This document shows, piece by piece, positions 23,897 through 58,020 of a stretch of 64,000 bases of DNA. The stretch spans positions 19,825,028-19,889,027 of the forward strand of contig CM082576.2 in assembly GCA_040954595.2 (NCBI GenBank), in the 5' to 3' direction. Position 1 is the first letter of the stretch. Each line of letters opens with the position of its first letter. The notes beneath the pieces are model-generated. The model had not been told where the DNA came from. It searched no databases and was given only the letters and a program-made list of their open reading frames with translations. The position numbers and the translations under genes were made by a program. The DNA comes from Balanoglossus misakiensis. Taxonomy: Eukaryota > Animalia > Hemichordata.

Positions 23897-26800
23897 TTAG
23901 AAGTATCTGTCTCCGTGACTCTCATGAAATAGTTCATTTCTACTCTTAAGAGGCCTTGGTCTCCATTCCTCACTTCCACTGGCACTACCACTGTCGCCAC
24001 TATACATGGGATTGTAGTGATAGATTTCTCTGAAGGCTTCCTCATCTTCCACACTTTTCCCTGCCTTGCTATCAACATCATCTGTATCATCAAACCAATG
24101 GATATCCATAGTTGCCTCTTGTTCTTCCCAGCCTGGATGTTTCTTTCCTCCAAGAGCACACCTGAATGTCAAATAGTTGAACATCATCAATGTGGGATTT
24201 GTTGTGATGTTGTTACTACTGTAGAATAACGCAGGTGGTTGTTGGACACTTTGCGGTCTGGTCGCGTGACTTTGCCTTGTTAGCCGCCATGCATGTTGAA
24301 CGCAAATTATACCATGATGCACTGCAGTTACCCTATACGCGAATAGGTCTATGCATGAACTCTTTGAATAAATTTGCTTCCACGATACAGATGTGATTAT
24401 TTTTCACGTTGCCTCATGCATGTATGGAAAGATACAGGTAAATTCCCAGTTTTCTGATGGGCAACATTTCTACAGCTGTCTCGATTCTACTCTGGTAGTA
24501 CTAAATAACTTACCGTTGGTACATGAGTAACATTATTACACCAAGCACTAACACAGCCGCTAAACCTCCCGCAACACCACCAATGATGACAGCTGTGTCA
24601 ACGGAGGAATCTGTAAGAGTTTAAATATTTCTATTTGTCACGGGGGCGATATGCTACGATAAAAGCAAGACAACCATTCATTATGATGCTTAACTATTGT
24701 AAAATGGTTAGTTGACCAAAAATCTAGTTATACTGCAGATGTTGCAGTTTCACCATTTTCACAAATATTTTCAAGACAACGTAAACTGTAATCATGTAGA
24801 TCAAACAAATGTGTAAACTTTAGTGAATATTGTTTTTCAATCTTGAGTTATTAAAAGACAAAGAAATGTATACACACCTTTAACTTGCATTGGTATTCTC
24901 TGGCGGCAAGTTTCACCTTGATATTCATCAGTACATTCACAAACAGGATTGCCATCACTGTCCTTGATGCAAACAGCATTGTTTGAGCAGAACCCTTCAC
25001 ATTTATCTAGACACAAGAATAAAATCACATCACATTATTCTACCTGACGAACCATTTGTATTAGACAAGAACTAAACCCACTTGCAGATTCATTTCTTAC
25101 AAACGGAATGGAAGTTGTGTGCTGTCGAACGTTGATTCACTATATATCCACATGTACCGGGTGAATAACATAAACAGTGTCTTGTATCAAACATAATTAA
25201 TGGAAAAAGGGCAGCAAGAGAGATACTAAATCAACAGTAGTTTCTACGTTTTAGCTGTACATATTTCTGTTGACATTTCAGTTGTAGATAGTTACATACC
25301 TGTACAAGTTATTCCATCACCAGTGAAACCAGTTTTGCAAGTGCATTCATATCCTGGTACAAGATTCCTGCAAGTGGCATTTGGGTGACAGTCATCCAGA
25401 CCAAGACGACATTCATGTGCATCTAGAAAACAAAAATTCTTGCAATGTCTTTAACTGACCACCAAATAAAACTATGGGATCTTCATACATATCACCAGTT
25501 AAAGGTATACGGTCACCTATGGAAAATTAGCTATAGTTACCATGGCAAAAGGAGATCTAGCCAATCACAGATTTTCAGTGGGTGGCACATGCAAAAAAGA
25601 GCGCCACCATATGTTCTTTAGAACTCTCATATACTCCATTTCAGCCATATATGGGCGTTTGTAAATTGGAGGTGACTGTATACCTTTAAGTTAGATGACT
25701 ACCCAGATGCAGTGCATGGTTATCACATTCCATAGCCTAACATGTAGAATTCTGAGAAAACAGTATTACAATATTGTTATTTCCGTGAAATTTTCAGAAA
25801 AGGTGTTAAAAGAGGAGCATTATTAAATTATATAAAAATATTGGATCACACAACATATCAAATGATACTCTAAATAAAGAAGAAAATTTCTTATAATGAA
25901 GTGTTTGTGTCAGATTGAACAGTTAAGGTTGATCTCCACAAGCACTTCATGCATGTTATCAGTTCTATGATTATGAAAAATTTATTCCTACCATCACATT
26001 CTGTTTCATATAGGGCACCCTCTCTGCCTGTAGTGTAGCCAGTTGGGCATGGTTGACAAGCATCCTGGTTGAATTCAAAGTTATATGTTCCAACAGGGCA
26101 TTTCTCACATCTATAGGACTCCTGATTCAAGTACCAACCAACATTGCAGTAAGCTGTTGATGGAATGGAAAAAGAGCATAGAATAAAATTGGAGGACTAT
26201 CATTATTTTGAACAACTGAGGCACAATAATACAACCTTCAGTTCAGTACAGTTGAGATACAACATGAAAAGTTGTATACATAATACTTACAAACATTACA
26301 ATCTTCACTTAAGGTTGAACCGACTGTTCTTGTGGTGAAGCCAAATGGGCACGGCATACAAGATGGCTGAAGTTCAGCATTTGATCGATAGGTTCCCATG
26401 GGACACGACTCACAAGACCCATTGACACTAAGTTGGACTCCCACTGATTTACATACCTCTGTAATTGAGAAGATTAATTTTTTGATATTCACGATTATCT
26501 GCTTTTCACTCACGTGAATTTGTTAAACTGTTGAATATGTTACATATCTGGCGGTTCTAAAGTAAAAACCTACTCGGAAAAAAGTTTACTGGATGCCGAA
26601 ATATTGCTTGCCTGTCACTTACAAATGATAACGCCATGGGTACGTCACATGGCCAGATCATGTGATTGATAGTCAAGAATAGCAAATAACACAAGTACCT
26701 ACCCTGACATTGTGACTCATCAGTAGCTCCTTCAACTAATGTAAGCATTCCCTTTGGGCAAGTATTACACACAAACTTTCCTTCTTCTGATTGCCAGAAT

Positions 26801-29800
26801 CCAATGGGGCAGCTTTGGCACTGAGAAGTCCCGTTGTCAAAGTAGTGACCAACATCGCACCTCTCTGCAATAGACATCATTGTTGAAAAATTATTTTTTC
26901 AACCAAAGAGATGAACATTCCAATTGTCATTCTTTCCATATTGGATCACACCACAATAATTTGATATATACGTCACAATTCCCGGTTTTATCGGGCCAGT
27001 GGCATGAGTGAGGCTAGACGCTAGTTTTGGAATACGGCTAGATACTAGGCTATGGCTGTGGACGAGGAGGAGATATTGCCTTCTGTTATACATACCAAAA
27101 CACTGCAAGATGGATAATGATCTCTTTCCCCTGGTGACTCCATTATTTGGACAGGCATTGCATGCTGTTTGTCCTTCAAGGGGTTGATAATATCCAATTG
27201 CACAAGGATGGCACTGACTCAGCTCAGTGTCATGGTACGACCCTTCAGGACACAATACTGTGGAAATACAAAATGTTGAAGGCAGATGTATACATTGTTC
27301 ATGTACTGATCATTATGCATTAATGGTTTAAAACACAACTACAATTGTAACACACAGCATTCATTTTGGCTAGTTTTTCACTCTTGTGTCTACAAGTGGG
27401 ATTGCAGTTGTGTGTGGTTGAATGTTGATTCACTATATATCCACATGTAGAATAACATTAACTGTGTCTTCTATCAAACATAATTAATGGAAAAAGGGCA
27501 GCGAGAAAGAGACTTTGTCCCTCCTTGGTATGAGCATATCAAATCAATTATTTCCTTATATCACCTCTTGGTTGGGTTGTATTTACCACTCACACTTGTC
27601 TTTAATTTGTACACTGCGACTCACAACCACACTCGCAGCTATACGGCCCACCTAACAGGTCATATCAGGCGATATAAACATATTAACATCTACACCTTTT
27701 TATAATATTAATTTTGGACACAGTTTTAATCCTTTCACCACCATGGTTCAGTCCAAACCAATTGTTTTCTATGGTAAGGTTTGACCTCTATAGAGGAAAC
27801 TGGGAGTGAAAGGGTTAAAGTACATAACAACTGAGGAGTATAGGCACTCACCACATTCTTCTCCAACAAGAACACTACCATTGGAACAGAATATTGTACT
27901 TTCAACTTGTAATGTCTCAGCGTCGACCGAATATTCAGCTGTATCAAAAGGACCATTCTTGACTGCATCTTCAATAACTACAACTGCAGCATCAGCAGAG
28001 CTAATGGATAAAACAACAGGCAAAAAATTCTTACATATGCCACATTACAATACCAACCAGAAGTGTGTACTGTAAACTGAATTGTTTTCACGACAGGAAA
28101 TTTTCGCGATATTAAAAGAGGCGACTGTTACGTGAGGACGAATTTTCGAGTTCTCGTATTTCACTAACTGCATCATTATCTCCAAAAACATTTTACACAA
28201 CTTTTTATTTTAAGGTTTTTTTGACCAGCACATGTTTTGCAGAAATTTACTGCTCGCGAAAATAACACGTTTTGCAGTATATTTCGAATGCATGAATCTT
28301 TAGAATACAGGATGCCGCAACATGAAGGAAGGTGGGCAGAAATGATGGGGTTGCCAAAAACTGAAAATGTTTGAGTGTTAAGACACAAAATAATTTGTTT
28401 TCACTTGCATGAATGGACTATTTTGCAATAATGCAAACACCAGCTGTATAGGGAATACAGAGCTGGTCCTCACACAGCCTGGGATCAGTACCCTAGACAT
28501 GTCACCAAAGTCATTTCAATAGAACAGAAGGGGAATGAAATACTCGAAAAATAACAATTACTACTCACGCATTGGTTGTGAAACTGAACTGAACCACAAG
28601 CTGAGTATCAGCCTGTCTCTTTCTTCGGTTTGAGGCGCCGCGGGTTATTTCAAGGTCATCAAAGTTGCATTCACCGCCACAAATACCAAACAAATCATTC
28701 AGATAGTTGATAGTGTTCATAAAACTGATCCTCAATTGCTGGATGACACCATTGTTACATGTACCAGCCTGTGAATTGTATGACACGCCACAATTCACTC
28801 CACGTTGAGTCTTCCCAGGAGCTGCAGTAGAACAATACAAACAAACAAATTTTGTTAAAGATGCAATTTTCAATCTAGCGAACGATGTATTGACTTAGAC
28901 TGCGAAACCGCTTAGCCAATCAGGAAAGTTACAGCTGCTTACCCAGAACAAAATATTAAGAAAATAGCTCAAATGTACTGGAGCTTTATATTGGGGTAAG
29001 CAGATATGATGTTAACAAATTATCTACCTGTAATCACAACCTTGACATACTGTAAAGCAAGAATTTGCATTACTCATATTTCTCTTTTCATTTATAACTA
29101 AAAGAAAATTGTCTCAATGCTGGAATACCCCCTCTCACAACTCTCTCTCTTTGGAGAATTTTCTGAATGTGCATGTGCCACCTGATTATATTTCTTTACT
29201 GATACCAAATCATTTTTTTCTCACCTGAACATCCAGGGAAGGTGAATTCCTCGTCTGGATTCTCAGGATTAAAAGATCCTTCACTATGGCAGAGATAGTA
29301 AGGTGCTGGCAGGCTTGCAAACTTGTATCCTGGTAAACAATCCACCTGACAGAACACACCCGACTCAAACTCATTACAGATGGAAATACCTTTAACTGGT
29401 GGTGCTGGCTTTTCACAATCAAATGATGTAAAAGAAAGGAGAACACAGTTTATTTGTCTATATATATATTTTTAATTTTATTTCATCTATCATCCAACAG
29501 GCAAATACTACCCAAATGTCTGTGTCTCATATATCATCCAACAGGCAAATACTACCCAAATGTCCAGGTCTAGGTAACGAACCCACAACCCTAGCCACTA
29601 GGGCACAATGCCTCTTTTACCAGGTTCACACAGGGTAAAATTTGAGACACTATTTGCCAGTGCTAACCACAGAGCATTAATCCTTTGAGTCATGTTGTGT
29701 CCACACACACAAAGTTTATGTATGGGTGCTGAGGCTCGGCCCCATAGACAATGGGTTGCGGAGAGGTGTTAATCCTTACACCGGCTCAGGTCTGGCTGGC

Positions 29801-40510: not shown

Positions 40511-42285
40511 ACCTATCTAACACACAACACACACTGTGTATATTTGTTGGGCATTTTGGTTTTCTACCACATATCTCAGTAGTTTCCATGCCATAGTGAC
40601 TCTTCAGTTTTACATAATGATATCCAATATAACCCAATCTACTATTAATGCGATTTTTTTTTTCATTTTGATTGTGGAAATGGTTAAAAATGAAAAACAT
40701 CTGAATTTGTACTTTAATAAATATAAGCTATATAGTATTTTAAAATGGTCATAAATTTATGTTAACATGGCAAAACATGTTTTAGTGTTTATGTATACTT
40801 GTTTAATATAGAGAAATAATTGTACAAATAAAATGACAACTTACTTTTGCTTTTAAAAATAATTAAAAATGGTAATGTTTCTTGAGATATACCAGGGTTT
40901 CTAGAATATAGAGGGCGCTGGCACGGGAACATTTGATGGTTGTCCCCAATACAACATTCTGGTATCATGTTTTATCATCTGTGGACATTTGGCAGCGATA
41001 TCCAACAGGATGTGCATAAAATCCCGAGAAGGTCTTCTCGTTGTATTGCTTCTTGAGATATTGAAACTGTCTTGAATCCCAACGCGAATGTGATGGTGAT
41101 GCGTATGTTGTTGCACGTAGTCACATCCGAAAACGAATCAAGTGCTCTTGTTGTTCAGCAGCTGAATATAGGTTAGTGGGATATGTGTATATTCTCGTGG
41201 TTATTTTTAATGAGTATAAATGACAGAATCGGTGGTTTGAACGTGTAAGAGTTGATGGTATTGGTTATGTAGTTGTGTTTTATCCAATGGTAGTGTGATT
41301 TTAATTGTGTATGAGGCGATGGCAGTTTTGTCAGGCTTTTTTTATTTTCGTGTCAAGCGACATCCAATATGGCGGTTGTCGTTATATACTGAAAGGGTTT
41401 CGTTTGTATGCATGTTTTGGCAAATTGTATATATGTTAACACTGGGCAAAAAGGTTGATATACATTCAGTATTTTTACGTATATGGACACGTAGATCAGG
41501 AATATGCGCAAGTATACAATAGTCTGCACAGTTGTACATCTACAATCTGCACGACGTATATGTGACGTATATTCACGTATATGGAACATACCAATGTGTT
41601 AGTATACGTGCACGTATATCTATGAAGATCACGGGTGTGCACAACGCAGACTATTGCAGATTAAGTGCACACCATAAACATTCTAACGTATTTGTACATA
41701 TTCTTAGTGCATATCTTCCTTGCTATTTGCATATCTGTGTTATTAGCATACGTTACATCATCATCACAGACATTTACATTTGCATAGTTGAGTTTACGTT
41801 TCTGGTATTTTTACGTATATTTATTGCAGACCCTTCCGGAAATTACCATACATTATGTCATCATTGAGGCCAAATATTTGCATATATTAACTGGGGGGGG
41901 GGGGGGGGGTCATATGTAAATTATTCCCAAGGTCGCAATACAGGGGTCATCCTTTATGGTCAGGATTAGGCCTTGCCTTTTTTATTCACTGTTCCTTTGC
42001 AAATTTGATGCTATGTATCTGTTTTGAAAGGCTACTGCATTTCAAGCAAATAAATAGCAACAAATCAGTAAAGGCAGTGATAGATTGACAGAGAAAACAA
42101 AAACCAACACAGTTCAAGCCAACACACTTTCTCCATCATGCATCAACACAAAACTGCCCACATATAACTCTGATTAATAACACCATAAATCAATGAACTT
42201 CACTTAAAGGTAATTTTAATGTAAAAACTGAAAAAAGGAAAATAATACAATGTATAAACACAAATAAATTCTTAGAAGATAAAAT

Positions 42286-44999
42286 TTAAACCCTCGACTC
42301 ATTTAACAATTCTGAAAGGCAGTTTTTTGGTGGGTCCCTAAAACATGGGGGGCCACCAACTCTCTTCAACCGTAAGGTTGGTTGAACCTCAATCAATTTG
42401 TTATCTAATTTTACAATAAGGTCATTAAGGGCCTGCGATCTAAAGGCAGGCGATCTGATGATTAGTCCATCTTGACCATCTTCTTCATCTGACATCATCA
42501 GATCGCCTGCTTTGACTACTTTTTCCCACAATAACTTGTCGCCTTCTTCCACCATTTTTCCACGACTCTGTAGAAGCTGTTAAAAGAACAAAAGAAAAGT
42601 ATTTAGTTTGACGATCTTAAGCACTTATCTTTGACTATGCTGCCTATTTAAAGGGACAGAGTCACTCTCGCTGCACTTTTTCCATTAATTATGTTTGATA
42701 CAAGACACTGTTTATGTTATTCTACATGTGGACATGTATTGAATGAGCATTCAACCACACACACCATCCATCATGCTTGTAGACAGGCTTGTAGGGCGAG
42801 TTTCAACTCTCCTATCCTACAAACAGAATAGAAGTTGTGTATGTCTAGTACTTCATCAGCAGCTGAAATGTTGTCAATGTATTTTACTGTTGTAGACAAA
42901 GATAGCATTCACCAATCAGCATCTAACTTACCCTTCTCCTCCTTGATCTCAGTTTATTCTTCATGGCAGTGTTTGCTTTTCTTTCCTGATTCTTTTCCAT
43001 GTTGTCAACAAATTTCCGTCTCTCCGTTTGCCATTTTCTATAAACTGCAACTGAATCAAAAAAAGGATTTCATAGTAGTGTACAAGTGACTCACCATCAT
43101 ATAACAATATCAGAAAATTTAATAATTATGTACAACTGGTCATTGGTGTGAGCATTTTGCCAATTCTTCAAAACTGGGTAGCCTTGAAGAAATTGTTTGA
43201 AATGCATAAGATGTTGATGGGCACACAAAACAGATGTTTTCTTAAATTTCTCTGTAATTTACTATACAATGCTGACCTACAAAATGGGTAAGTCATCGGA
43301 TAACTGTATGCACCGTACAAGTTCAGTAAAAAGCTGCCTATAGTACATATAAAGACACTGCTTAGTGCTAGAATGATTTAAAACTAATCATATCACAAAT
43401 CATATTAGGTTGTAAAGTGTTCAAATAAATTTTAGATTTCTTACATTCCATCTCTTCCTCCTTGTATTCATCAGCATATTTTGCTTTTAACTGGTCAACC
43501 AGTCCTTTGAAGACAGTCTGGTTATGGGCACTCCTTAGCCTCCCTGTATGAAGAGTAAATGAACACAAAAAAACATTTAATTAAGTTAAAACTGAAGTTT
43601 TTCTGTGGGGTTGAACTGAACATGCAAACCACACAAAATATGCCATTGACAAATGAAATATTTCACCTTGAAAGATTCAATACATGGTATGACAATGGTC
43701 AGAACTCAAATGCAAATAATGCTTGAATGTTACAATGAGCAAAAATGGTCAGGATCAACTTGGAAAATGAGATCATTGCCCACCTCTTGCTAGCAGTAGC
43801 ATATTTGTCTGTTACGAAACTTACTGTTCCTACATGTATGTGTGAGTTCTGGGCAAGGTCAATTATTTTTACTTGTGATTTTCTTTTGCATACATTATCA
43901 CATGATAATCAACAATAATCCCTATTGTACACTGGGCAGGCTCCCCAATAAACTAACCCAAAGACTGGTGTGTTTACATTTTTTGTCCAAGTTAATTATC
44001 ATGCAAAAATCATGGACGCATCAGAACACCCCGTAAACGACGAGAAAAAGGCGACATGGTCATGGTTATGCTATTTTACCAATCACAAACAACAGGCATT
44101 GCAACATCTCTTGTCTGACGGGGTATTTGACCACTTTAACGCACAGAGACAGAGTGGTTGACTTCCTGTTGTCGTCAACCATACATTGTTTACACATTGT
44201 TCGTGATAATCCCTAATGCCTCTACGCCGAAGTTCCGCGTCCTTTCTCTCTGGGGGCTATAACTTATAAATCTTCACACACTACACCAAAAAGATTACAG
44301 TGAGAAAAAAAGAGATATACTTACTCATTGTCTACTTCAAAAGCATCTTCAAGGCCTGCATACAGCCGTTTTACCTGCCGCTGCAAGGTAAAACAATGGA
44401 TATTTGGATTAACAACAAATATGTTTGGCGAGAAATATCATTGTACCTAGCCCCTATGCACAAACGACTGAACAAAAAACACATTATCATAATATGGCAA
44501 TCCAACCATTTCCAAATAGCTAAAATGCAATCGAGCAGAGTGTAAAACGAAACACATGAGGGGCGCGGATATAGACCAAGGCGCGTTTACATTGACTTAC
44601 AAATATCATGGGATCCACCTTCTTTGTACTGCTGCCGCCGCCGCCGCCGTTCTGTTGTTTTTCTCTGAGGGCTTTGACCTCGGTCTCCAGACTGTCCAGT
44701 TTCTGTAACAGTTCCTCTCTCGTGTCGTCTGTTGTCGACACGAACTTGTCGTGTACCCGGTTGACGGCATTCAGTAGCATCCGCATGCTACTAGTATTCG
44801 GGTTCTCTGATGATGAGCTGCTACTGCCAGGGGTGCTTGATGAGAGGCCTGCAGCTGATGAGGAGGTCGATCGTCTTTTCAAAAAAGGGGACGGGGACGG
44901 GGACGACGTCGACGGTGAGGCTCGCGAGGAACCGAACGAGTCATCACCCAGAACTTCGGCCAAAACTTCAGGTTCAGCTCGTCTGTAGAATCTTGACAT
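42286..44999 (-). CDS. Transposon-borne C14orf93/DUF4616-like protein (~319 aa, 5 exons)
   Basis: Exons 44999-44601 (Ser-rich plus coiled coil), 44380-44325, ~43539-43445, 43050-42932, 42576-42286. Spliced C-terminal half: RQVKRLYAGLEDAFEVDNELRSAHNQTVFKGLVDQLK...FAVYRKWQTERRK...KLRSRRRRLLQSRGKM...LLWEKV...LMMSDEEDGQDGLIIRSPAFRSQALNDLIVKLD...KRVGGPP. The exon 2/3 junction is in frame only via the weaker AG at 43541-43540. Family call rests on recalled motifs, not a search. Confidence 0.72.
42648..42830. mobile_element. Kolobok-like MITE fragment, with related pieces at ~25080-25225, ~27370-27520 and ~38830-39130
   Basis: TTAA|AGGGACA terminus; the shared core gtgtcttgtatcaaacataattaatggaaaa occurs in either orientation at these sites. 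Confidence 0.55.
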
Positions 45000-45396
45000 C
45001 GCGAAAACGTTTGAGAAATCTTGGAGGTATATATTGAAATGAACATGTACGCCGCATTCGAGAATGGGTATAAACTGAGTCCTGAAAACGTCCCCATTTT
45101 AAACTGCGCGCCCTGTTCACACTTCATGCACTTGTAAAAGTCAAAGGTGAATGTTTCATCCTTCAAAATGATTGGACACATTTAAAAGTCAAAGGTTACG
45201 TCGGAAGAGACCATTAATGAAGGGGTGGGTAAATATGGCTGGCACGTTGCCTTACGTACAAATAGCAATAAAATACGTAGCTAAAATACCCCTTCATATG
45301 TGTAAAGATCCTACGGCCCCCACAGTGCAGTCATTTACACAATACGCGTCTGTATTTCCACTATATTCTTCTGTGGTTGTAGAAAACCGTAGTACA

Positions 45397-48300
45397 ATGC
45401 CTTTGAGAAAGTACGCGACGAAAATTTGCCCTTACTGTAAGGCAAGCCTTTCAAAGTCTGGCTACTATGAACACAAAAACCGAAAGGGTGCCTGCGTCAA
45501 GTCGGATGATTTGACAGTATCTGAAAGAACCTCCACAGTTCCAGAGTTTGTCGTCTCCGGTGACGATAATGCAGAGCTTCCGGGTAGTGGTATGGTCGGC
45601 TGTGAAGTCAATGACGATGATGTCAGTTTCACCTCTTCAACGAGGGATCTCACGGAAAGTGACGCAGATTCAATTTCATCAAATGAACCGGAAAGTGAAG
45701 AATCTTCACAACGAGAGCAAATGGTAAGTTTACAGTGTGACTGCAGTGTTTCACGCCCATCTCTCTGCTATTTGTCAATGAGTCATGTGTATGTGTACCG
45801 ACCACTGTTTAACTATTATGCATTCAAGACCGGACTTTTTCTGATATTATTTGAAATCCAGAGCAAACCCTGTAAATGCCAAAGGTAAAGGTGAGGGAAA
45901 TTTCAGAGGTGAATTGCGATCCTCTCAGCTGCCACAGCAAATGTCAAATTTATTTTTACATAAGTCATAACTCATTTACATTCCATGAACCATGAAGTTC
46001 TCTTGTTTGGTTTTATTTCCAGTACTGTATTTTTATTCTGTGTTACCCAGTGTTCTCATTGTCAACATAGCCTATATCTGTGTAACAACCATTGTTTTTT
46101 GTTGACAAATGGGAAATGAAATCTCGTCTGGACATGGATTCAATTTTGCAAATAACAATGCTTTACCGTACACATACATGTATATGTATATGTCGAAGTT
46201 TGGTAGATAATTTTTTGAAATTGAACACGAAACTGTACTATATATACACTTACAAAAATACTGAAACCATTATGTCTTGCAATATGATAAACTATTTACT
46301 TTATTCAAACTGTCTATTTAGACCATCAACGTGCAACTGATGCATTGACATTTTAATTTAAGTCCTGCCTCTGTATCTCCAATTGCTTGCAATTCTAAGG
46401 TTTTTTTCACTTTTTTGTTGCAGACTAGTGAAATATGGAACGAGAATGAACTACATGAAGCAGCAGACTTTGAAAGTTCAGCTGGTGCATCAGCTGAGCA
46501 ATCACAATTTAAAGGGCAGCTAAAGGGGTTTTTCCTGCTTCTCCTGCACTGGCAGTATGTCAACTACGTTTCTGATAAAGCCATGGCTGTCTTGTTTAAG
46601 ATTCTTTTCAAACTACTGCTGCTGCTTGGGATCATATTGAAAAGTAAGAAATTAGAAGAATTTTCCAGCCAGTTTCCACATACTTTTCATGGCATCAGAA
46701 CATTGTTGGGACTGGAAATAGATAACTTCAAGAAATTTGTGATGTGCCCAAAATGTCATACCAGGTACGACTACAGTGAAGCATTTGAAGAGAATAGCAG
46801 AGGAAAGAAAAAGTCTAAGACCTGCACGCATGTTGAATTTCCAAGTCATCCACACAGAAAACAGCGTAGACCATGTGGTGCATTCCTGATGAAGACTGTA
46901 AGGGGAAAGAACAGTGCTGAATATTTGTATCCAAAACGACTGTACTGTTACAAAAGCATCAAAGCGTCACTTCAGGAACTTATCAAAAGGCCAGACTTTT
47001 TACAGAAATGCCAAGAATGGAAGCAAAGGGAAGTTCCTGATGGAATTTTATCCGATGTTTATGATGGGAGAGTGTGGAGAGAGTTCATGCTAAAAGACAG
47101 TAGTGATGAACATACTTTTGCAGCAATGTTGAATGTAGACTGGTTTCAGCCATACAAACATACAAATGACTCAGTGGGAGTCATATATCTGATTTTGCAG
47201 AATCTGCCACGTACTGAACGATTTAAACCTGAAAACATTATATTGGTAGGAATCATACCTGGTCCTACAGAACCGAAACGGGACATAAATCCTTACTTGG
47301 ATCCATTAGTGGATGAATTACTTGAGATGTGGAATGGTGTTGAACTAAAGGATTCTTCCTTCTGTGGATTTAATATCTATAGCATGATGCTCCTATGCCT
47401 GTCTTGTGACATACCAGCTTGTCGGAAATGTGGAGGTTTTTTGGGACATTCAGCTGAAAAAGGTAGGGTGTCAGTCCTTACATTTTATTAAAGCTTAATT
47501 AGTTATAAATTTGCCATTTTTTCTGTACTTTATTTTTTCCTGTGTTTCAATTGCAATTCTTTCTGTTTAACGCAAAATATGGCTTTTGAGTACATGTATA
47601 TTGTAATGATCACACCCCTTCATTGGAAGTATTTGGGGATGAAAATAATGTTTTACCAAATCAAACTGGTGTAACAGTAGAGATACAAAATTGTTAATTG
47701 CATTTCTTGTCTTTAAAGTCGATTAGGTATAGGAACCAATTTGTGAACTTCACTCTCTGAAGAGACCTTAATAACTTTGACTCAATTATTCTTTTTAGGT
47801 TGCAATAAGTGTTTGCGGAGTTTCCAGCGTGATGGTTTTGGGAGTAAAGCTGATTATTCTGGTTTCAATCCAGAAGACTGGGAGGAACGTACCAATGAAG
47901 AACATCAACTTTATGCAGGTATTTATTGAATACCATAGTTTTTCCAATATTCAAACTGCTGAAATAGTTCAACCAACAATCATTTCCTGGAATGTATATT
48001 ATTTTTTGAACTGCATTACTTCGTGCAATATGTAAAAAGATGCACATTTCCTCTACTGTTTCTCTTTACTGTGAAAAAGGGACATATTATAATCGTCGTA
48101 AAGTGACATCATGTAAATATGACAAGCATCTACATGTACACTGGTTTACACATTGCTATATCAGTACGCGTATTTTTCTTTTTTTCTAGGAATGGCCAAG
48201 CAAGCAAAGACAAAAGCAGAACGTCAGCAAATTGAATCAAAGTATGGAGCAAGATATTCAAGTCTTTACCGTCTTCCATACTACAATGCTGTGCGCTTCA

Positions 48301-49647
48301 GTGTCATAGATCCAATGCATAATCTCTTACTGGGTACTGCAAAACACGTCCTCAAGGTTTGGAAAGAATGCAAGGTTGTTAGTGATGAAGATATGGAAGA
48401 AATTCAGAGAAGAGTCAATGAGATGAAAACTCCCAGTGATGTTGGAAGGATTCCTAGCAAAATAACCTCTGGATTTTCTGGTTTTACAGCAGACCAGTGG
48501 AGAAACTGGACATGTATATACTCTTTGTATGCTATCCAGGGTTTTGTAACTGGTGAACATCTTGACTGTTGGAAACAGTTTGTGTATGCATGCAAATTGT
48601 TGTGTAGTAGAAGTATTTCTGTAGAGAAGGTATCAACTGTCCACACATATTTAAGATTATTTTGTAAGAAATTTGAAAAGTTATATGGACCTGAGATGTG
48701 TACTCCAAATATGCATTTACATTTACATCTGAAAGAATGCCTACTGGACTATGGTCCTGCATATTCTTTCTGGTTGTTCTCATGTGAACGATACAACGGT
48801 ATCTTAGGTAATTTTCCTACCAATAATCGTGCTGTCGAAGTGCAATTAATGAGAAAATTCATGCAGGGTTTTCAAGTTTACTCTATGCAATGTAATAGCT
48901 CTGACAATTTCTTTCATGATATCTGGTCCACCTTTCAGGAGAACTGTACAGGCTCATTAGCTATAAATGAAAGTGAAAATAACTACTATGAAAGTCATAG
49001 GAGGAAAACTTCTCAAAGTTTTGAGGATGTAAATTTTTCAGAATCTGAGTCTCAGATTGTCCTACCTCCTATTGTGCAATCGGCTCTTGACTCTGAAGAT
49101 ATAGAAATGTTGGATAACATGTATTCATATTTATATGCAAGTAAGCGTGTTAAAGTGATTGTTGCACTAACAGAACAATTCAGTAGAGTTTGGCAAGATG
49201 GCCAACTGTACAATGTAGCCATCGCCAAAGAACGAAGGCAGTGCATATGTGGTAGCATGCTGGTGTGAATAGGACCAGCAGTCAGGCCTCTTGACTATAG
49301 ATCCAAAGTGTCAGACAGAGAGAGCTGGTATAATTAAAGAACTTTTTCGCAGTGAAGTAATTTTGCAAGCTAATGAAGGGAAGTTGAAAAAAATTTCCCA
49401 TATAAGAGCCAAAGTTGAGTGGTTGACAGATCACCCTTTCCATAATTATTTTGGTGGTGATGTAACTGTTTGGGGAACCACAACTGAATGCACAACAAGT
49501 GCACAGTTCATACCCTTAGAGAGAATTAGATGTAGGTGTGCAGTATCTGTTACCAAGGTGAAGTTTCAATATCAAAGTGGAAATAGGACAAGAATTTTAG
49601 AGAAAACTGTCACAATCACTGTCCCTTTGAAAAGTATGAGTATTTAA
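45397..49647 (+). CDS. CACTA/EnSpm transposase (Transposase_21/TnpD-like), C-terminus disrupted
   Basis: Exons 45397-45723 (CPYC...YYEH zinc-finger-like), 46424-47462, 47799-47918, 48190-49268; all GT-AG and in phase, 854 aa to the first stop. Motifs: SDVYDGRVW, LNVDWFQPY, ENIILVGIIPGPTEP, CDIPACRK, GCNKC, IDPMHNLLLG, TPNMHLHLHL, YSFWLFSCERYNGILG. Coding-like sequence continues in another frame to 49647. Confidence 0.9.
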
Positions 49648-52412
49648 AGGCATGTAAGCTGCAACTTGAAACTCTATAAACAAAGCATAATTTCATTCAC
49701 TTGAACTCTGGAAGTAAATGTACTCTCAGAGACATAACATTTTCATTTTTCATTGCACTATTGCACTTGTTAAAAAATGCAGGAATTGCATTACTGATAT
49801 TTCTTTACTTTTTTGGCCATTTTGTCATAAGTGTTGATCTTGATATACTACATTAAGAAATTTCATTTAATAGACATATTTAAAAAGCATATCTGATTTT
49901 TTTTAAAGCTTAAATTTTCTTATCCAGTTGTAGCTCATGTGCCAAGAAGGAAGGTGTTATGTATTGGTATTAACTGTTATGTATAATTTGTTGTGTACGA
50001 GGCTGAACACATGAGCATGCACAGTTGGTAATAAAGAAGCAGCATCGCTGTCTAGTTTGAACACACATGTCCAATTCTGTGTTGTCTAATTTCTCTGGTA
50101 TGAGCCCACAATAAAATAGCAATATATTACAATATGTTTCTGTGGAAAATCCAAAAAAATTTCAACCACACTTATTAGTTTTTAAAAATTTAGCAAAATT
50201 GAAAATCACTCCCCAAAATCCTGGAGAAATTATTCAACTTCCTATAGCCCCTTCCATCACTGACTGCATCCTGAAACAATAATTCTGGAAAATCACTGAA
50301 ATATTCCTGCTACATCCCTAAATTTCAGTGAGTTTGAGCTGTGACCACCCATGTGTGTACATTATCATCTCTGACATCAAGTTTCTGCAACAACTCTTCT
50401 TATGCTTCGCATGGTGTTGAAACAAACTTATCATACACATGGTTGACGGCGTTCAGTAACTTGCGCATACCAATTGAATAGTTTGCCAGGGGTGCTCCTT
50501 TGTGGCTTGTGTTTCTGCTTAAGGGGAACGTCGTCGATCTTGAAACGACGTTTTGCGGCATATAGGGGCCCTCTAGTGACCAAATGTGGGGAGTGTAGTA
50601 TTGTATTACATGTGTGCCGTAAAACGGCTTCTACCTGTACAGCGTAAGTTGGCCGTGAGATGCCAAACATAGCGCGTGTAGGTTTCCTTTTATGTACAAC
50701 AAAATTTTGAGCTTATCATTTTTACGCAAACTTGAGTACCTTATGTTTACCAAGTTCTATTCATTTGTTCGGAAATTATGGCATGTATTGAAGTATATTG
50801 ACTCATTCGTATAACCAAAGTTACATCGATACAACTATTAGTGCGAATATTTCCCTCAATTGGTATTCAAGTTCTTGATTGATCCCTATAATTTAACAGT
50901 CTGGATATCGTGTGATCGCGCCCAAAGCAAAATGATCCTTGATTCGCACAGCACTCAATAAAACACGTACGATTCGCGATGAGATATTCGGTCAACAGCA
51001 ATACCTACCTTAAATTCAGTTCGTCAGTTTGATAATGGGCCGCGGCCATAGCCTATATATATTAGGCCTATATCAGTTTAATTTAACGTAACTTGTAAAT
51101 TTCTTGCTGCACTAGGAGGCCTATAGTTCAAAATGACAAATAATTCGGACTGGTTAAAGGACAGCTGTTAACCGCGACTAGGCTGGAAACATCAGAGAAC
51201 TACCGGAATACGTAAACTGTCAAAAAAACCCCGCCTGCGCTGTTGTTCGCAATTACTTCCCCATCCATCTCTCCCCATCGCAATTGCATAGTGGCAGAGA
51301 CAGGGATACGTTCGACTAATTATGATGTTTGCACTTTATGTCAATCGAACAGATGACATTGGAACTCTTGGAAAATGTTTTGTTAATTTTGTGCAAGAAA
51401 TGGGGTTCAGAGCAAGTCGTTCGCTGTTGCTGTATCATGTGCTGCTCTAGGCCCTAATTCCTCGAAACTCGCGTTAAAGGCCGCCGCAGACGAGAGAAAT
51501 AATAGCTGTCATTCGAGGAATTTTAATTTGCTCAGCAATATTTCCTTCCATGTACGGGCGACTTTTCCTTATCTTTTTACTTTTGCGCCGCGGATCATAT
51601 CGACATATATCAGTCAGCATGACCGTGTCTCGGTCAAGAGACTAGAACGTCGTTAGCTGCTGTCCATGCCAGAATCCATATCGGTGTCGCAGTTTGCAAC
51701 ATGATCATATCTGTGCCTAAGGTTATTTGCAACCAATTAATTTTGTGGCAATTCACTATCGTATTTGTGACTGTCACAAATGGTATTTGGTAAAGTGAAT
51801 TAAGAGGTGCCAGTCTAATTTCTTTATGTCTGACGTGACCAAAACCTGGGCTCGGGCCAGCCCTGGTCGAGAGCCGCCAGAGGCAGCAGCTCCCATCGCT
51901 TGTGGCGTAAGCGCCGCCGCCGCCGCGCGGCGCCGGTACGCGTCGTTGGGGTGACCGCATGTATCGAAGGCCTTTATCATGTTTATACGGGACTGTAAAT
52001 ATTTATTACACATATAGCTACACAACTTGCGTTTTCGTCAAGGAAGTAGTCCCCCCCCCCCGTCCACCCAGTTCGCAACACGGTTAAAACCAGTGCCGTT
52101 GGCGGTAAACAAGTCGATCAGGCGGCCGCGGGGGCTCATGGCCGGTTGAACTGTAGAAACTTAGTGTCAAGACGGAATTTCAATGTTGAGATCTTATCTA
52201 CGATAACTGAAGAAAATGTCATTTTCCTGTAGGTCTATGCTCTAGTAGTGCCTGTAAGTCTGTGTGTTCCTGGCATGGCGATACGTGTAACCACGGTGTA
52301 GTTGTAAGGAAACGGGGCCGTGTACAAGGCAAGGAACACAAAGACCGTATAGCCCTGCGTACATTGAGTGTTCCCTGCGTTACACGGCCTCCACTAGCTC
52401 TGCGTGGCAGGG

Positions 52413-52510
52413 TAGCTCCGCGTACAGGTCTGTGTGTTCCCGGCGTTACACGGCCTCCTCCGGTGGAGGCCATGTAACGCCGGGAACACACAGACCTGTA
52501 CGCAGAGCTA
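52413..52510. repeat. Near-perfect ~46-bp-stem palindrome (MITE-like), with degenerate copies over 52230-52570
   Basis: tagctccgcgtacaggtctgtgtgttcccggcgttacacggcctcc-tccggt-ggaggccatgtaacgccgggaacacacagacctgtacgcagagcta. Confidence 0.9.
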
Positions 52511-54967
52511 GGCCTCCACGTGTAATGTCGGGAACACAGGGCTAAAAGACCTACAGGTACGCATAGCTAGCTCCAAGTCCAATGTTGACAGAGCTACTTG
52601 ACCCAGAGTAATCATATCATGATTGTGTAATATTGATACATGGCTGGTCGAGATGGCCCTATACGTCGATCTACACACATCTCTAATTTCATTAGTCAGC
52701 AGAGAGACGACATCGGCCTGCGTTTATGAGCTGTGATTGCCGATTTCTCCATCGTCCAAACCGCGCGCACGTCTCTGTTTAAGCGTGAGTCAAGTTTGGC
52801 AGTTTTCCTGCAGTTACCTCCGCACATGGCCATGCCGCGCCCACGTACCAGCAAACACCACGAGGCGCTGGTCATTCATCGTATTGTTTAGAATTCAGGC
52901 AAGATGCTTCATGTGAAATGTCGGCTGTAGCCGACACTCTCGCCAAACTCGTCGTCGTAGTCTTACTCGTAGGGCTACTGCTCTGCTTACAATTACGGTA
53001 CATGGCCACAAAAGTCGGAAGAGCCGAGGTAAAAAACAACGAGGGAAACCAAAGACGTTTGATAGAAAATAAATTAACGCCTACAACCACAAGTACTGAT
53101 CAGTCTGTAGTCTTTTAAATAGGCTTACTTTGTCCACCAACAGTCTCCACACATTTGTTCATGAATATGGAGTGGCCCATTAAACTGCAAATTAGCATGA
53201 ATATACGTAGCTATACATGGGCGTATACTATAAGCACACTAAAGGTAGAAAATGCATACAAATACATAGGTCTGCGGAACGTATATCTAAGAGAACGTGT
53301 GCATGATGTATACTTCACGTATTTGTACACATATCTATCAGATTGTATTTGTTACGTAAATGCACGTATATGCAACGTATATGTCAAATATACAAACTTA
53401 GTAGTTTTACGTATATTGTCGTATATCAAGCATTTTGCCCAGTGTAAGATGGTGAAGTTTGCTTGAAGGAATAGAAACATCAGAGGCTGGGTACATCGGA
53501 GTTTCTATTTCATTCCATACAAGTTGAAATTAAGCTTATTTTTGGAGTGTATACAGGTACATATGATTATTTAGAAACGGTTTTAGGCAAGTGAATCTGC
53601 TGAATTCGGGCGATCGGTCTTGTATCGTGTGTATGAAACGTACAAGCAGTGGTAGGATATTATTTTGGGATGTGTACTTCAATAGTTTCCATGTCTCTTA
53701 TATGTATTTGTCAAAAAATAAACAGTAGTAAAAATGGATTGTATTTTCCATTATTTTTTCTGTTAATATTGTATGTTTACATGACCAAAAGCCTTAAGGT
53801 TTTCATTGGAATTTATATCAGGGTAATCAATTTGTTTTTGATAATTATTTGCTTCAAATATGGAACAATCTGTGTGAGTACAAAACAGAAACATTGCTAG
53901 ATAATTTGACATTTGAATTGTTCGTAAGAATGTGAGGACAAGCATAGAATTGGCCAAATTATGCTGGTGACCACTCTGTTTAGTGTGTATGCTTTCTAGT
54001 CGTGACAGGCATGTTAAAAACATAGACAATGAAATCTGGTTGGAGCATGAAAAGTAGAGTTGACTTGTTAACATATTTTGATGCCATGAAACCATTTTGT
54101 GGACAGGACAATTTATGTGACCAAGAATTGATTTTCTGAATATCACAAGGTTGATAGTGAATTCATTGTAATTTGTTGTCCTGTTTAAGTAGTGGGGTTA
54201 TTGTAAAAAAATCATCATTCGCTATCTTGTACTTGGAGTGATGTCATCTCGACATTGATACATTATGGCTATTGAGAGGTGCGTGTTATGCAGGCAAGTG
54301 TATATCTTGATGTACTTGTTTAAATACACAATTATACTTAATGATTTAATTTAAAAGTTTTGTTTATTTTCTTGACAGTTTTGGCTACCAAAGAGTTCTC
54401 AAGGTGAGTGTTGGTGTACATCAGTGCAAAGTATCATGTACAAACTAAGAGATCAACACACTCAAATGTGTATTGTGTCGTGTACGAATTAGTTTCGTAA
54501 ATCATTTGTAGATAACGTGTTTAGTTTTGTGGTAAGTGACACTGAGGTTTCAGATCGGATAGGATGATTGTCCAGTGCCATGCATTGTGTGTTAACATGT
54601 GAAAGCACTAGCCTAATTTGTTTGAAATTTGGTATTCAGGGATGATGTAAGAAAAAATAATTTTAACAGTTCATAGAATCAGTGTTTATTAATACTTCAA
54701 AAAGGTATGTGACTTGAATGTGTGCAGTACATCATTGTGCTATGTGGTGTTAACACCATTGAATAGTGCCATTACTTACAGCAATCTTACAGCAATGGCT
54801 TCAGTAAAAATTTGAGTATGATTTGTGTGATTCCTGATACCCCTGTCTTGTCATTTGTGATGTTTTACTGTGTACTTTTTGAAATAAAGAAACTGGTGTG
54901 TTAGTTGAATATGTCAGTGAGTGAATGTGCAATTGGACAGTGTGTTGGCAGTTAGTGGAGATAAAAA

Positions 54968-55310: not shown

Positions 55311-58020
55311 AATACTACCACAGAGGGTGCTATACTATATGACCATCAACTGAGTATCATTCAAATACTCTGTGCACAGTGGGTAAATACACATTTGTTT
55401 TTTTTAGGAGACTTTCATCAGTTGCAGTAAAATACAACGTGACTACACTATATACACCAATGAGAATGGCCATGTAATTCAGAGAGTGCTTGATATTAAA
55501 ACTGTATCATAGTTGTGGCCTTTACTGCTGATAATTAGTTTACCATAGATACAAGCCCAATGCAACAGGACAGGGATAAACATATGCAAAGACAAGATTA
55601 AACCCCACCTCCATAATCAAAATACTACCGCAGAGGGCGCTATACTATATGACCATCAACTGAGTATCATTCAAATACTCTGTGCACAGTGGGTAAAGAC
55701 ACATTTGTTTTTTTAGGAGACTTTCATCAGTTGCAGTAAAATACAACGTGACTACACTATATACACCAATGAGAATGGCCGTGTAATTCAGAGAGTGCTT
55801 GATATTAAAACTGTTTCATAGTTGTGGCCTTTACTGCTGATAATAGGTTACCATAGATACAAGCCCAATGCAACAGGACAGGGATAAACATATGCAAAGG
55901 CAAGATTAAACCCCACCTCTGTAATCAAAATAATAATAATAATAATAATTTATTTGTATAGTGTCAGTATCCACAAAAATGTGATCAATGACGCTTAAAG
56001 CAAAAGTACAATACAACAAATGGCTAAAAAACAGATTTAAAAAGTAAAGTTTTAACATTTGATTTAAAAACAGATAAGTCTGGTGCCTGGCGAATGGTAA
56101 GTGGAAGATTATTCCAAAGAATTGGAGCAGCAACAGTAAAAGCACGATCACCATAACTCTTGGTGCGTGATCGAACAAGGCAGAGTTTGAACTGATCAGC
56201 TGACCTTAAATTGCGACACGGAACATATAGATTAGTCATGCTAGAAAGATAGATTGGACCAAGTTTATGAATGGATTTAAAAATGTGAACTAACATCTTA
56301 AAAACAATACGCTGTGTAACAGGTAGCCAGTGCAACTGATACAAAATTGGAGTGATGTGACAGGTGATTTTTGAATGAGTAACAATTCTAGCAGCAATAT
56401 TCTGAACGCGTTGGATACGGTTGATTGAATACTTCGGGAGCCCAAATAAAAGTGAATTACATGAATCAATTCGAGAAGTAATGAATGCATGAACTAATTG
56501 CTCTGTAGCAGAATGAGATAAATATTTGCGGATAAGCGCAATGCGACGTAAATGAAAAGTGGCAGAGCGGCAGATCTGTCCAATATGTGGCTTCATTGTC
56601 AGACAAGAGTCAAGGATCACACCAAGGCTCTTAGCCTGACAATGGACAGGAATCAGAGAATCGCCAACACGAATTTCTGAAATCCCTCTAGCAGACAGAT
56701 CACCTGAAATACCAAAGAAAATAACAAATTCAGTCTTATCATCGTATAAGCACAAGAAGTTTTCAGACATCCAAAACCTAACATCGGATATACAAAGTTC
56801 AAGATTTGAAACAGTTCTTGCTGCGTTGTCTTTACTAAAAGACATATAAAGTGAAGAGTCATCTGCATAAAAACTATAAAGACAACCATGACTTTGAACT
56901 AATTCACCAAATGGAGACGGGTACATATTGAAAAGTATGGGACCAAGAACTGATCCCTGTGGTACCCCAGTGTCGAGCCGATAGAAAGGTGATTGGGTGG
57001 AAATTACAAGTACACACTGACTACGATTGGAAAGGTATGACTTAAACCACATGAGAACAGTATCTGAGAGACCAAAATACTACCACAGAGGGTGCTATAC
57101 TATATGACCATCAACTGAGTATCATTCAAATACTCTGTGCACAGTGGGTAAACACACATTTGGTTTTTTAGGAGACTTTCATCAGTTGTAGTAAAATACA
57201 ACGTGACTACACTATATACACCAATGAGAATGGCCATGTAATTCAGAGAGTGCTTGATATTAAAACTGTATCATAGTTGTGGCCTTTACTGCTGATAATT
57301 AGGTTACCATAGATACAAGCCCAATGCAACATGACAGGGATAAACATATGCAAAGACAAGATTAAACCCCACCTCCATAATCAAAATACTACCACAGAGG
57401 GCGCTATACTATATGACCATCAACTGAGTATCATTCAAATACTCTGTGCACAGTGGGTAAAGACACATTTGGTTTTTTAGGAGACTTTCATCAGTTGTAG
57501 TAAAATACAACGTGACTACACTATATACACCAATGAGAATGGCCATGTAATTCAGAGAGTGCTTGATATTAAAACTGTTTCATAGTTGTGGCCTTTACTG
57601 CTGATAATTAGGTTACCATAGATACAAGCCCAATGCAACATGACAGGGATAAACATATGCAAAGACAAGATTTAACCCCACCTCCATAATCAAAATACTA
57701 CCACAGAGGGCGCTATACTATATGACCATCAACTGAGTATCATTCAAATACTCTGTGCACAGTGGGTAAAGACACATTTGGTTTTTAGGAGACTTTCACC
57801 AGTTGCAGTAAAATACAACGTGACTACACTATATGCACCAATGAGAATGGCCGTGTAATTCAGAGTGCTTGATATTAAAACTGTTTCAAAGCTGTGGCCT
57901 TTACTGCTGATAATTAGGTTACCATAGATACAAGTGGAATGGAACCGGACAGGGATAAACATACAAAGGCTAGGTTAACCCCCCCCCCCCCAATACTACC
58001 ACAGAGGGCGCTATACTGAT
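55311..58020. repeat. Tandem array of ~309-bp units interrupted by a LINE
   Basis: aatactacc(a/g)cagaggg(t/c)gctatac at 55311, 55621, [55929/57076], 57385, 57694 and 57992. Confidence 0.93.
55933..57072 (-). mobile_element. 5'-truncated L2/CR1-group LINE with an uninterrupted 342-aa RT C-terminal ORF (57052-56024)
   Basis: WFKSYLSNRSQ, GVPQGSVLGPILF, YADD, HITPILYQLHWLPV, YGDRAF...LWNNLP; short 3' UTR, (TTA)n tail, CAAAATA on both sides (55926-55932, 57073-57079). Confidence 0.93.

Follow-up and report, generated by a model that had tools for sequence, protein, structure and literature searches.

The window analysed here is a 64,000-nt stretch of the genome of the hemichordate Balanoglossus misakiensis (contig CM082576.2, positions 19,825,028 to 19,889,027). 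Between positions 41440 and 53444 lies a CACTA/EnSpm element of 12,005 nt that carries two genes. It starts at 41440 with CACTGGGCAAAA, the reverse complement of which closes the element at 53444. The terminal inverted repeats (TIRs; the left arm, with its CACTGGGCAAAA core, at 41440-41463 on the plus strand and the right arm at 53421-53444 on the minus strand) run over 25 nt with 92% complementarity, and the core letters match at 12 of 12 positions. The termini read CACTG, not CACTA, and the TIRs are short and of the CAC(T) type. A 3-bp target-site duplication (TSD), TAA, flanks the element on the left (41437-41439, plus strand) and on the right (53445-53447, plus strand). Just inside the ends lie ACGTAT(AT) repeats, at 41477-41820 on the left and 53201-53416 on the right, both given on the plus strand. 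ACGTAT is the best shared subterminal 6-mer, with 15 copies, a count matched in none of 500 shuffles; ACGTATAT has 11 copies no more than 400 nt from an end and 1 copy in the remaining 63 kb. The locus therefore has what defines a CACTA/EnSpm (CMC) element, namely CAC(T) TIRs, a 3-bp TSD, a Transposase_21 gene and subterminal repeats at both ends. An Rfam search gave no match.

What the site looks like without the element can be read from contigs of two of three sequencing runs, all from one sample that may be the source of the assembly, in which 41436 is joined to 53445 with a single TAA and 3 ambiguous letters. The flanks of the element match a repeat at 4-515 of the window, and since that repeat spans the junction without a gap, the element must have inserted into a copy of it. 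The element-free joint has a contig depth of 1840 and 12528, against about 200 and 600 for the interior of the element, so that it is 9 to 20 times deeper. With a joint so much deeper than the element, and a repetitive flank, these joints are probably paralogous empty sites rather than proof of polymorphism. The left end of the element is also covered by a deeper, diverged contig, which suggests more numerous relatives with common ends.

The transposase gene is on the plus strand and is modelled as 4 exons with GT-AG introns (45397-49268; 854 aa). Its product matches Transposase_21 (PF02992) with E 1.7e-16, and its Asp, CxxC, His and Glu motifs are found at residues 346, 437, 456, 536, 670 and 694. 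Exon 1 (45397-45723) encodes the N-terminal Cys/His zinc-finger-like motif of the lineage, exon 2 (46424-47462) the Transposase_21 match with the first and second catalytic-type Asp motifs, exon 3 (47799-47918) the CxxC, and exon 4 (48190-49268) the H motifs and the catalytic-type Glu motif, after which the 854-aa frame stops early at a TGA. The rest of the C-terminal domain can be recognized by tblastn with the proteins of loci L011 and L148 in another frame of the plus strand, at 49225-49647 (the start is approximate), with a stop at 49270-49272. The last ~130 aa, which relatives have kept, are thus frameshifted and interrupted by a stop, and the contigs show the same letters. For this reason, we do not class the window element as an intact, autonomous copy; it is likely non-autonomous now and looks damaged.

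The second, accessory gene is on the minus strand, head-to-head with the transposase gene, the two start codons being separated by a gap of 397 nt (45000-45396) that is likely a shared divergent promoter. It has 5 exons with GT-AG introns and encodes 319 aa without stops. Exon 1 (44601-44999) encodes a Ser-rich stretch followed by a predicted coiled coil. Exon 2 (44325-44380) and exon 3 (43445-43539) lead to exon 4 (42932-43050), which encodes a long basic helix, and exon 5 (42286-42576) encodes the C-terminal DUF4616 module and the stop (72% identical to the record P0001). In the window sequence, only a weak GAG acceptor keeps exon 3 in frame; use of the CAG acceptor further upstream gives a stop at codon 159. 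The exon 3 acceptor has 4 more letters here, at 43539, than in the contigs of two runs, and because both runs are without them an ordinary acceptor is probable for the sequenced allele. The splicing of both genes is predicted from homology and splice signals. A preliminary description of this DNA had proposed a CACTA transposon at 41440-53444 in which a spliced 5-exon gene sits head-to-head with a Transposase_21 gene, and both proposals stand: the transposon through its CACT-type TIRs (with CACTG termini), its TAA duplication and the pre-insertion site, the gene through the 319-aa GT-AG model and through tblastn matches to all 5 exons from P0014, a relative in the acorn worm Ptychodera flava. 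The motifs it had listed also appear in the order given, KLRSRRRRLL, LW, LMMSDEED, RSPAFRS, LD and RVGGPP beginning at residues 216, 239, 249, 264, 280 and 295.

A few further things in the window deserve a mention. A decayed partial copy of the coiled-coil stretch of accessory exon 1 lies at 50376-50460 on the minus strand, downstream of the transposase gene and convergent with it, an arrangement that resembles the convergent layout of loci L127 and L141-143. The last intron of the accessory gene holds a very high-copy short repeat (42648-42840; contig depth >100,000), with further copies at 25108, 27387 and 39020. In the non-coding right part of the element, at 52365-52520, a perfect-spaced palindrome of 59 nt is accompanied by part of a third arm; it is high in copy in the runs and likely a nested miniature element. 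Outside the element, both on the minus strand, are an RVT_1 reverse-transcriptase fragment (56024-57079) and a host exon that encodes a cysteine repeat of the ephrin-receptor-like type (26899-27309).

The obvious comparison is with maize En/Spm and its two proteins, TnpD and TnpA. Both systems have CACT ends, a 3-bp duplication, subterminal repeats and a Transposase_21 (tnp2) protein accompanied by a second protein (PMC2613891). They differ in that TnpA is made from the same transcript by splicing (PMC2613891), whereas the DUF4616 gene of the animal elements is a separate gene; none of the plant TnpA-type Pfam families is matched by the animal element, and the window copy ends in CACTG. Within the CMC/CMCT clade, EnSpm elements have 5'-CAC..GTG-3' ends and a 3-bp TSD (Kojima 2025, PMC12730594), and the termini and TSD of the window element agree with EnSpm as described there and in PMC6004678. 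A further point in common with the EnSpm elements of PMC12730594 is that C(2)C and H motifs follow the second Asp and precede the Glu; that paper deals with fungal TET/JBP cargo, and its section 3.1 names no second gene of the DUF4616 type.

A match to DUF4616 (PF15394), the family of vertebrate C14orf93, had been set beforehand as the test of the accessory gene. The last exon alone scores 26.7 bits against the Pfam model (E 3.7e-6), where the cut-off is 27. The best match in an HMMER search against 1.84 billion representatives is a 314-aa protein that RefSeq names 'C14orf93 homolog' in P. flava; P0014 is an isoform of it, is 59% identical to the window protein over the whole length, and at full length reaches 67.3 bits (E 1.9e-18), above the gathering cut-off of 27, covering profile positions 198-474 of 524. 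The test thus came out in favour of membership, and from these profile matches we assign the window gene to the DUF4616/C14orf93 family. It is a homologue and not an orthologue-type host locus of vertebrate C14orf93, because it sits inside a transposon. Relatives were found with unequal ease. The HMMER search produced 13 matches, two of which (P0005 and P0013) were dropped as unrelated repeats. A word-based homologue search returned 0 proteins with exon 5 and 1 with P0014, and an Atlas search with exon 5 alone returned nothing. Look-alike clusters in the Atlas come from Mucoromycota (where 29-33% of members carry DUF4616), Cnidaria, Mollusca, Porifera and Basidiomycota. The Pfam model matches 37 of the 51 rows of the family alignment built here and none of 17 exon pieces taken from the second genes of other loci; the membership of distant relatives is defined by our own profiles and by a common S-[DS]-EE, WRS, L-x-x-LD pattern.

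How regularly the two genes occur together was examined from both directions. In the forward direction, a transposase motif yielded 120 metagenome loci, 80 of them with flanks, which were scanned with a profile of 60 family proteins. At E <1e-3, a relative was present in 8 of the 80, in every case upstream and on the opposite strand, and reversed-sequence controls gave nothing at E <1. The 8 loci represent three families, in one of which two copies with differing flanks begin to be homologous exactly at a CACTG just beyond the gene. Most misses are short contigs, and the misses L069 and L076 are copies of an accessory-carrying family whose homology ends before the gene. Within the animal-type clade, a list chosen by hand from the transposase tree plus two loci too short for it, the accessory gene is present in 9 and absent from 7 of the 16 loci with at least 5 kb upstream; with 7 kb, it is present in 8 of 12. 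A held-out set of 8 further loci (from genome_contigs), scanned with the profiles built earlier, contained a relative in 5. Viral contigs and phages had no such transposase match. In the reverse direction, the family alignment matched five of the assemblies behind the held-out set 12 times in 11 places, two of which had originally been picked via the transposase. Of the 9 places not so selected, which represent 6 families, 7 (4 families) have a transposase within 3 kb, a count in which L145 and L146 may stand for the same locus; three known copies were missed by this search. As to background, assemblies of 20 and 16 Mb have only 16 and 14 transposase matches. No transposase lies closer than 10 kb to the accessory relatives at L147 and L149.

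Altogether, an accessory relative accompanies 13 transposase families that are 30-57% identical, in a layout that is head-to-head in 10, convergent in 2 and tandem in 1. In 7 families, CACT[AG] ends flanked by a 3-bp duplication enclose both genes, the complete elements being those of the window (12 kb), L123 (7.9 kb), L124 (6.1 kb), L143 (14.1 kb), L144 (7.9 kb), L145/146 (6.0 kb) and L148 (6.7 kb); the scan for ends also returned weaker chance pairs, and the best pair was taken. For L026/L021 (left CACTG only), the L035 family (>20 kb), L061, L125, L126 and L127, no full pair of ends was found. Accessory-carrying families are scattered over a starred clade that comprises 34 of the 43 rows of the transposase tree. 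The accessory tree correlates with the transposase tree (rho 0.42 with p 0.003; for raw identity, rho 0.26 with p 0.03), the calculation being made with the first accessory tree, which included the wrongly cut P0050 and the long branch L126; many loci come from few host assemblies, and common host history can inflate such a correlation. The preliminary description had claimed DUF4616 as the accessory protein of an animal CACTA lineage, and had named a one-off capture as the outcome that would tell against it. The claim is borne out by the 13 families, 7 of them within complete CACT ends. The RefSeq name of the 59%-identical P. flava protein is what one might expect if the window element alone had captured a host C14orf93 orthologue, an account that, provided the distant relatives are truly homologous, is scarcely credible when relatives stand beside Transposase_21 in 13 families, 7 times within complete ends and mostly head-to-head. 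Because of this recurrence in complete elements, the reverse test and the tree correlation, DUF4616 is, as judged from sequence comparison, a native, inherited accessory family of a widespread animal CACTA lineage.

What might such an accessory protein do? A fold prediction from the single sequence was poor (pLDDT 50); the accessory model has a coiled coil and a basic helical domain with pLDDT mostly >90. Residues 118-245 of P0014 contain 30 K/R against 18 D/E and are net basic, and the conserved core of the protein is an acidic hairpin with a basic helix. Family-specific subterminal motifs are present in 4 of the 7 complete elements (reached in at most 1 of 500 shuffles) and are not significant or marginal in the other 3. 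From the coiled coil and basic helical domain, the repeated end motifs, the precedent of TnpA and the nuclear location of mouse Rtfc, we predict that the accessory protein likely binds DNA. The transposase would cut at the CACT ends, leaving the 3-bp duplication. The accessory protein would oligomerize through its coiled coil, likely as maize TnpA does, and we lean slightly towards a scheme in which it loads on the ACGTAT arrays and either assists in end pairing or acts as a regulator of the element. A different division of labour would leave the reading of the ends to the zinc finger of the transposase and make the accessory protein, still native to the element, either a transposase partner or a chromatin or anti-silencing factor. 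The transposases do have a conserved N-terminal Cys/His motif, the acidic hairpin and basic helix could equally serve protein contacts, and no known DNA-binding fold (BEN and Myb-MADF among those compared) stood out in structure searches. Against solved structures, a sequence search gave weak coiled-coil matches, and fold searches with the confident model gave no clear match. Set against this, the combination of a net basic helical domain, a coiled coil and end motifs in repeated copies agrees with the layout of TnpA (PMC2613891), and we regard the partner or chromatin role as possible, if rather doubtful.

The vertebrate gene of PF15394 is C14orf93 (RTFC; mouse 4931414P19Rik). P0014 scores above the DUF4616 cut-off and the mouse protein has been reported as nuclear; the vertebrate model differs in having about 200 more N-terminal positions. 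Mouse Rtfc has been seen in the nucleus and has also been reported to be secreted (PMC10163356), and the descriptions of the protein in PMC5322522 and PMC10163356 report no recognizable domain. A profile search brought in 40 proteins, many of them teleost 'C14orf93-like' records, including three halibut paralogues on three separate contigs. When 62 proteins were scanned with a profile of the transposase N terminus only, the fish proteins P0043, P0048, P0058 and P0039 scored 38.5, 35.3, 34.5 and 21.2 bits, the best shuffle reaching 7.7. P0034 and P0062, also from fish, fit the zinc-finger pattern yet score only 8.8 bits. No Pfam family covers the Cys/His motif of these six proteins in the 4 that were scanned singly. 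The genes of the four higher-scoring proteins thus open with a transposase-type first exon, a sign of transposon origin. In the tandem element L144, alternative splicing that would join the zinc-finger exon to the DUF4616 gene was sought and not established. The record closest to the Pfam model is P0004 (197.6 bits over two ~87-aa repeats; 34% identical to window exon 5), labelled as sturgeon and flagged UNVERIFIED_CONTAM.

In an unrooted tree of 41 rows and 103 columns, from which L126 was left out, a single starred group (98/93) gathers the 12 fish rows together with P0004. It stands beside the acorn-worm group with weak support (82/68), and the root may lie on the vertebrate branch. The vertebrate rows are tight and the invertebrate rows far more diverse. 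From the transposase-type N termini and dispersed paralogues of fish and from the tightness of the vertebrate rows, we think it probable that vertebrate C14orf93/RTFC is a domesticated copy of a CACTA accessory gene; a copy would have become fixed in the vertebrate lineage and its transposase partner lost, a course of events that we likewise consider likely. One could instead suppose that C14orf93 is an ancient host gene, captured once and very early by the CACTA ancestor, and that the vertebrate gene was never borne by a transposon. A starred branch sets the vertebrate rows apart and could carry the root, L147 and L149 are solitary relatives, and the Atlas extends the family to fungi, all of which would suit such a history. 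It sits badly with fish paralogues that are multiple, dispersed and equipped with a transposase-type first exon, with transposon-borne copies that are only 16-45% identical to one another, a range far wider than that of the vertebrate group, and with the searches, insensitive as they were, in which no conserved set of single-copy invertebrate orthologues surfaced. Early host capture is, in our judgement, unlikely. We are fairly confident of the preferred reading as a whole: a two-gene animal CACTA/EnSpm element with a native DUF4616 gene, a likely TnpA-like role for its product and vertebrate C14orf93 as its likely domesticated descendant. There is a bolder version, in which human C14orf93/RTFC comes from an EnSpm/CACTA accessory gene, the DUF4616 domain, with a fold so far undescribed, binds DNA sequence-specifically and still reads motifs like those of transposon ends, and the teleost zinc-finger fusions from the transposase first exon are a second recruitment. 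Taken jointly, that is something we doubt a little more than we believe.

C14orf93 would resemble RAG1/RAG2 and HARBI1 as a host gene drawn from the protein set of a DNA transposon, and would differ from them in that only the accessory gene would be kept. NAIF1 is the accessory gene of Harbinger. RAG1/RAG2 from Transib and HARBI1 from Harbinger are domesticated transposon products (PMC5753468), and the human DNA-transposon section of the same review, by Kojima, lists no EnSpm/CACTA repeat or EnSpm-derived gene. Among papers outside subscription journals, Repbase entries and supplements, judged from titles and abstract openings, our literature search found none that links C14orf93, DUF4616, RTFC or 4931414P19Rik to transposons, and C14orf93 is likely a new case of domestication. 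The proposal offers an origin and a testable molecular function for a conserved vertebrate gene linked to thyroid cancer, and it gives an identity to the second gene in a broad animal CACTA lineage, where helper proteins are poorly described. Since each element comes with a DUF4616 protein and an end motif of its own, the elements are ready protein/site pairs for binding assays and for a two-component transposition test.

Some observations on the wider collection of loci remain. Contigs filed under bacterial genome bins (L121-L128 and G001-G005) carry eukaryotic transposons, and because these bear introns the bins likely contain host animal DNA. Three GC-rich, fungal-looking Transposase_21 loci (L009, L028 and L036) have a convergent second gene that resembles the DUF4616 gene; at L009:9300-11200 and L028:1000-2900, it is conserved and spliced, with a coiled coil and a similar order of motifs, and profile comparison of the fungal-looking genes with the DUF4616 family was weak (probability 13.5% and 0.7%). 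Finally, L035, L051, L053 and L055 belong to a giant family (>20 kb) of the same transposon lineage as the window element, in which a multi-kilobase array of 72-nt tandem repeats lies just past the DUF4616-like gene.
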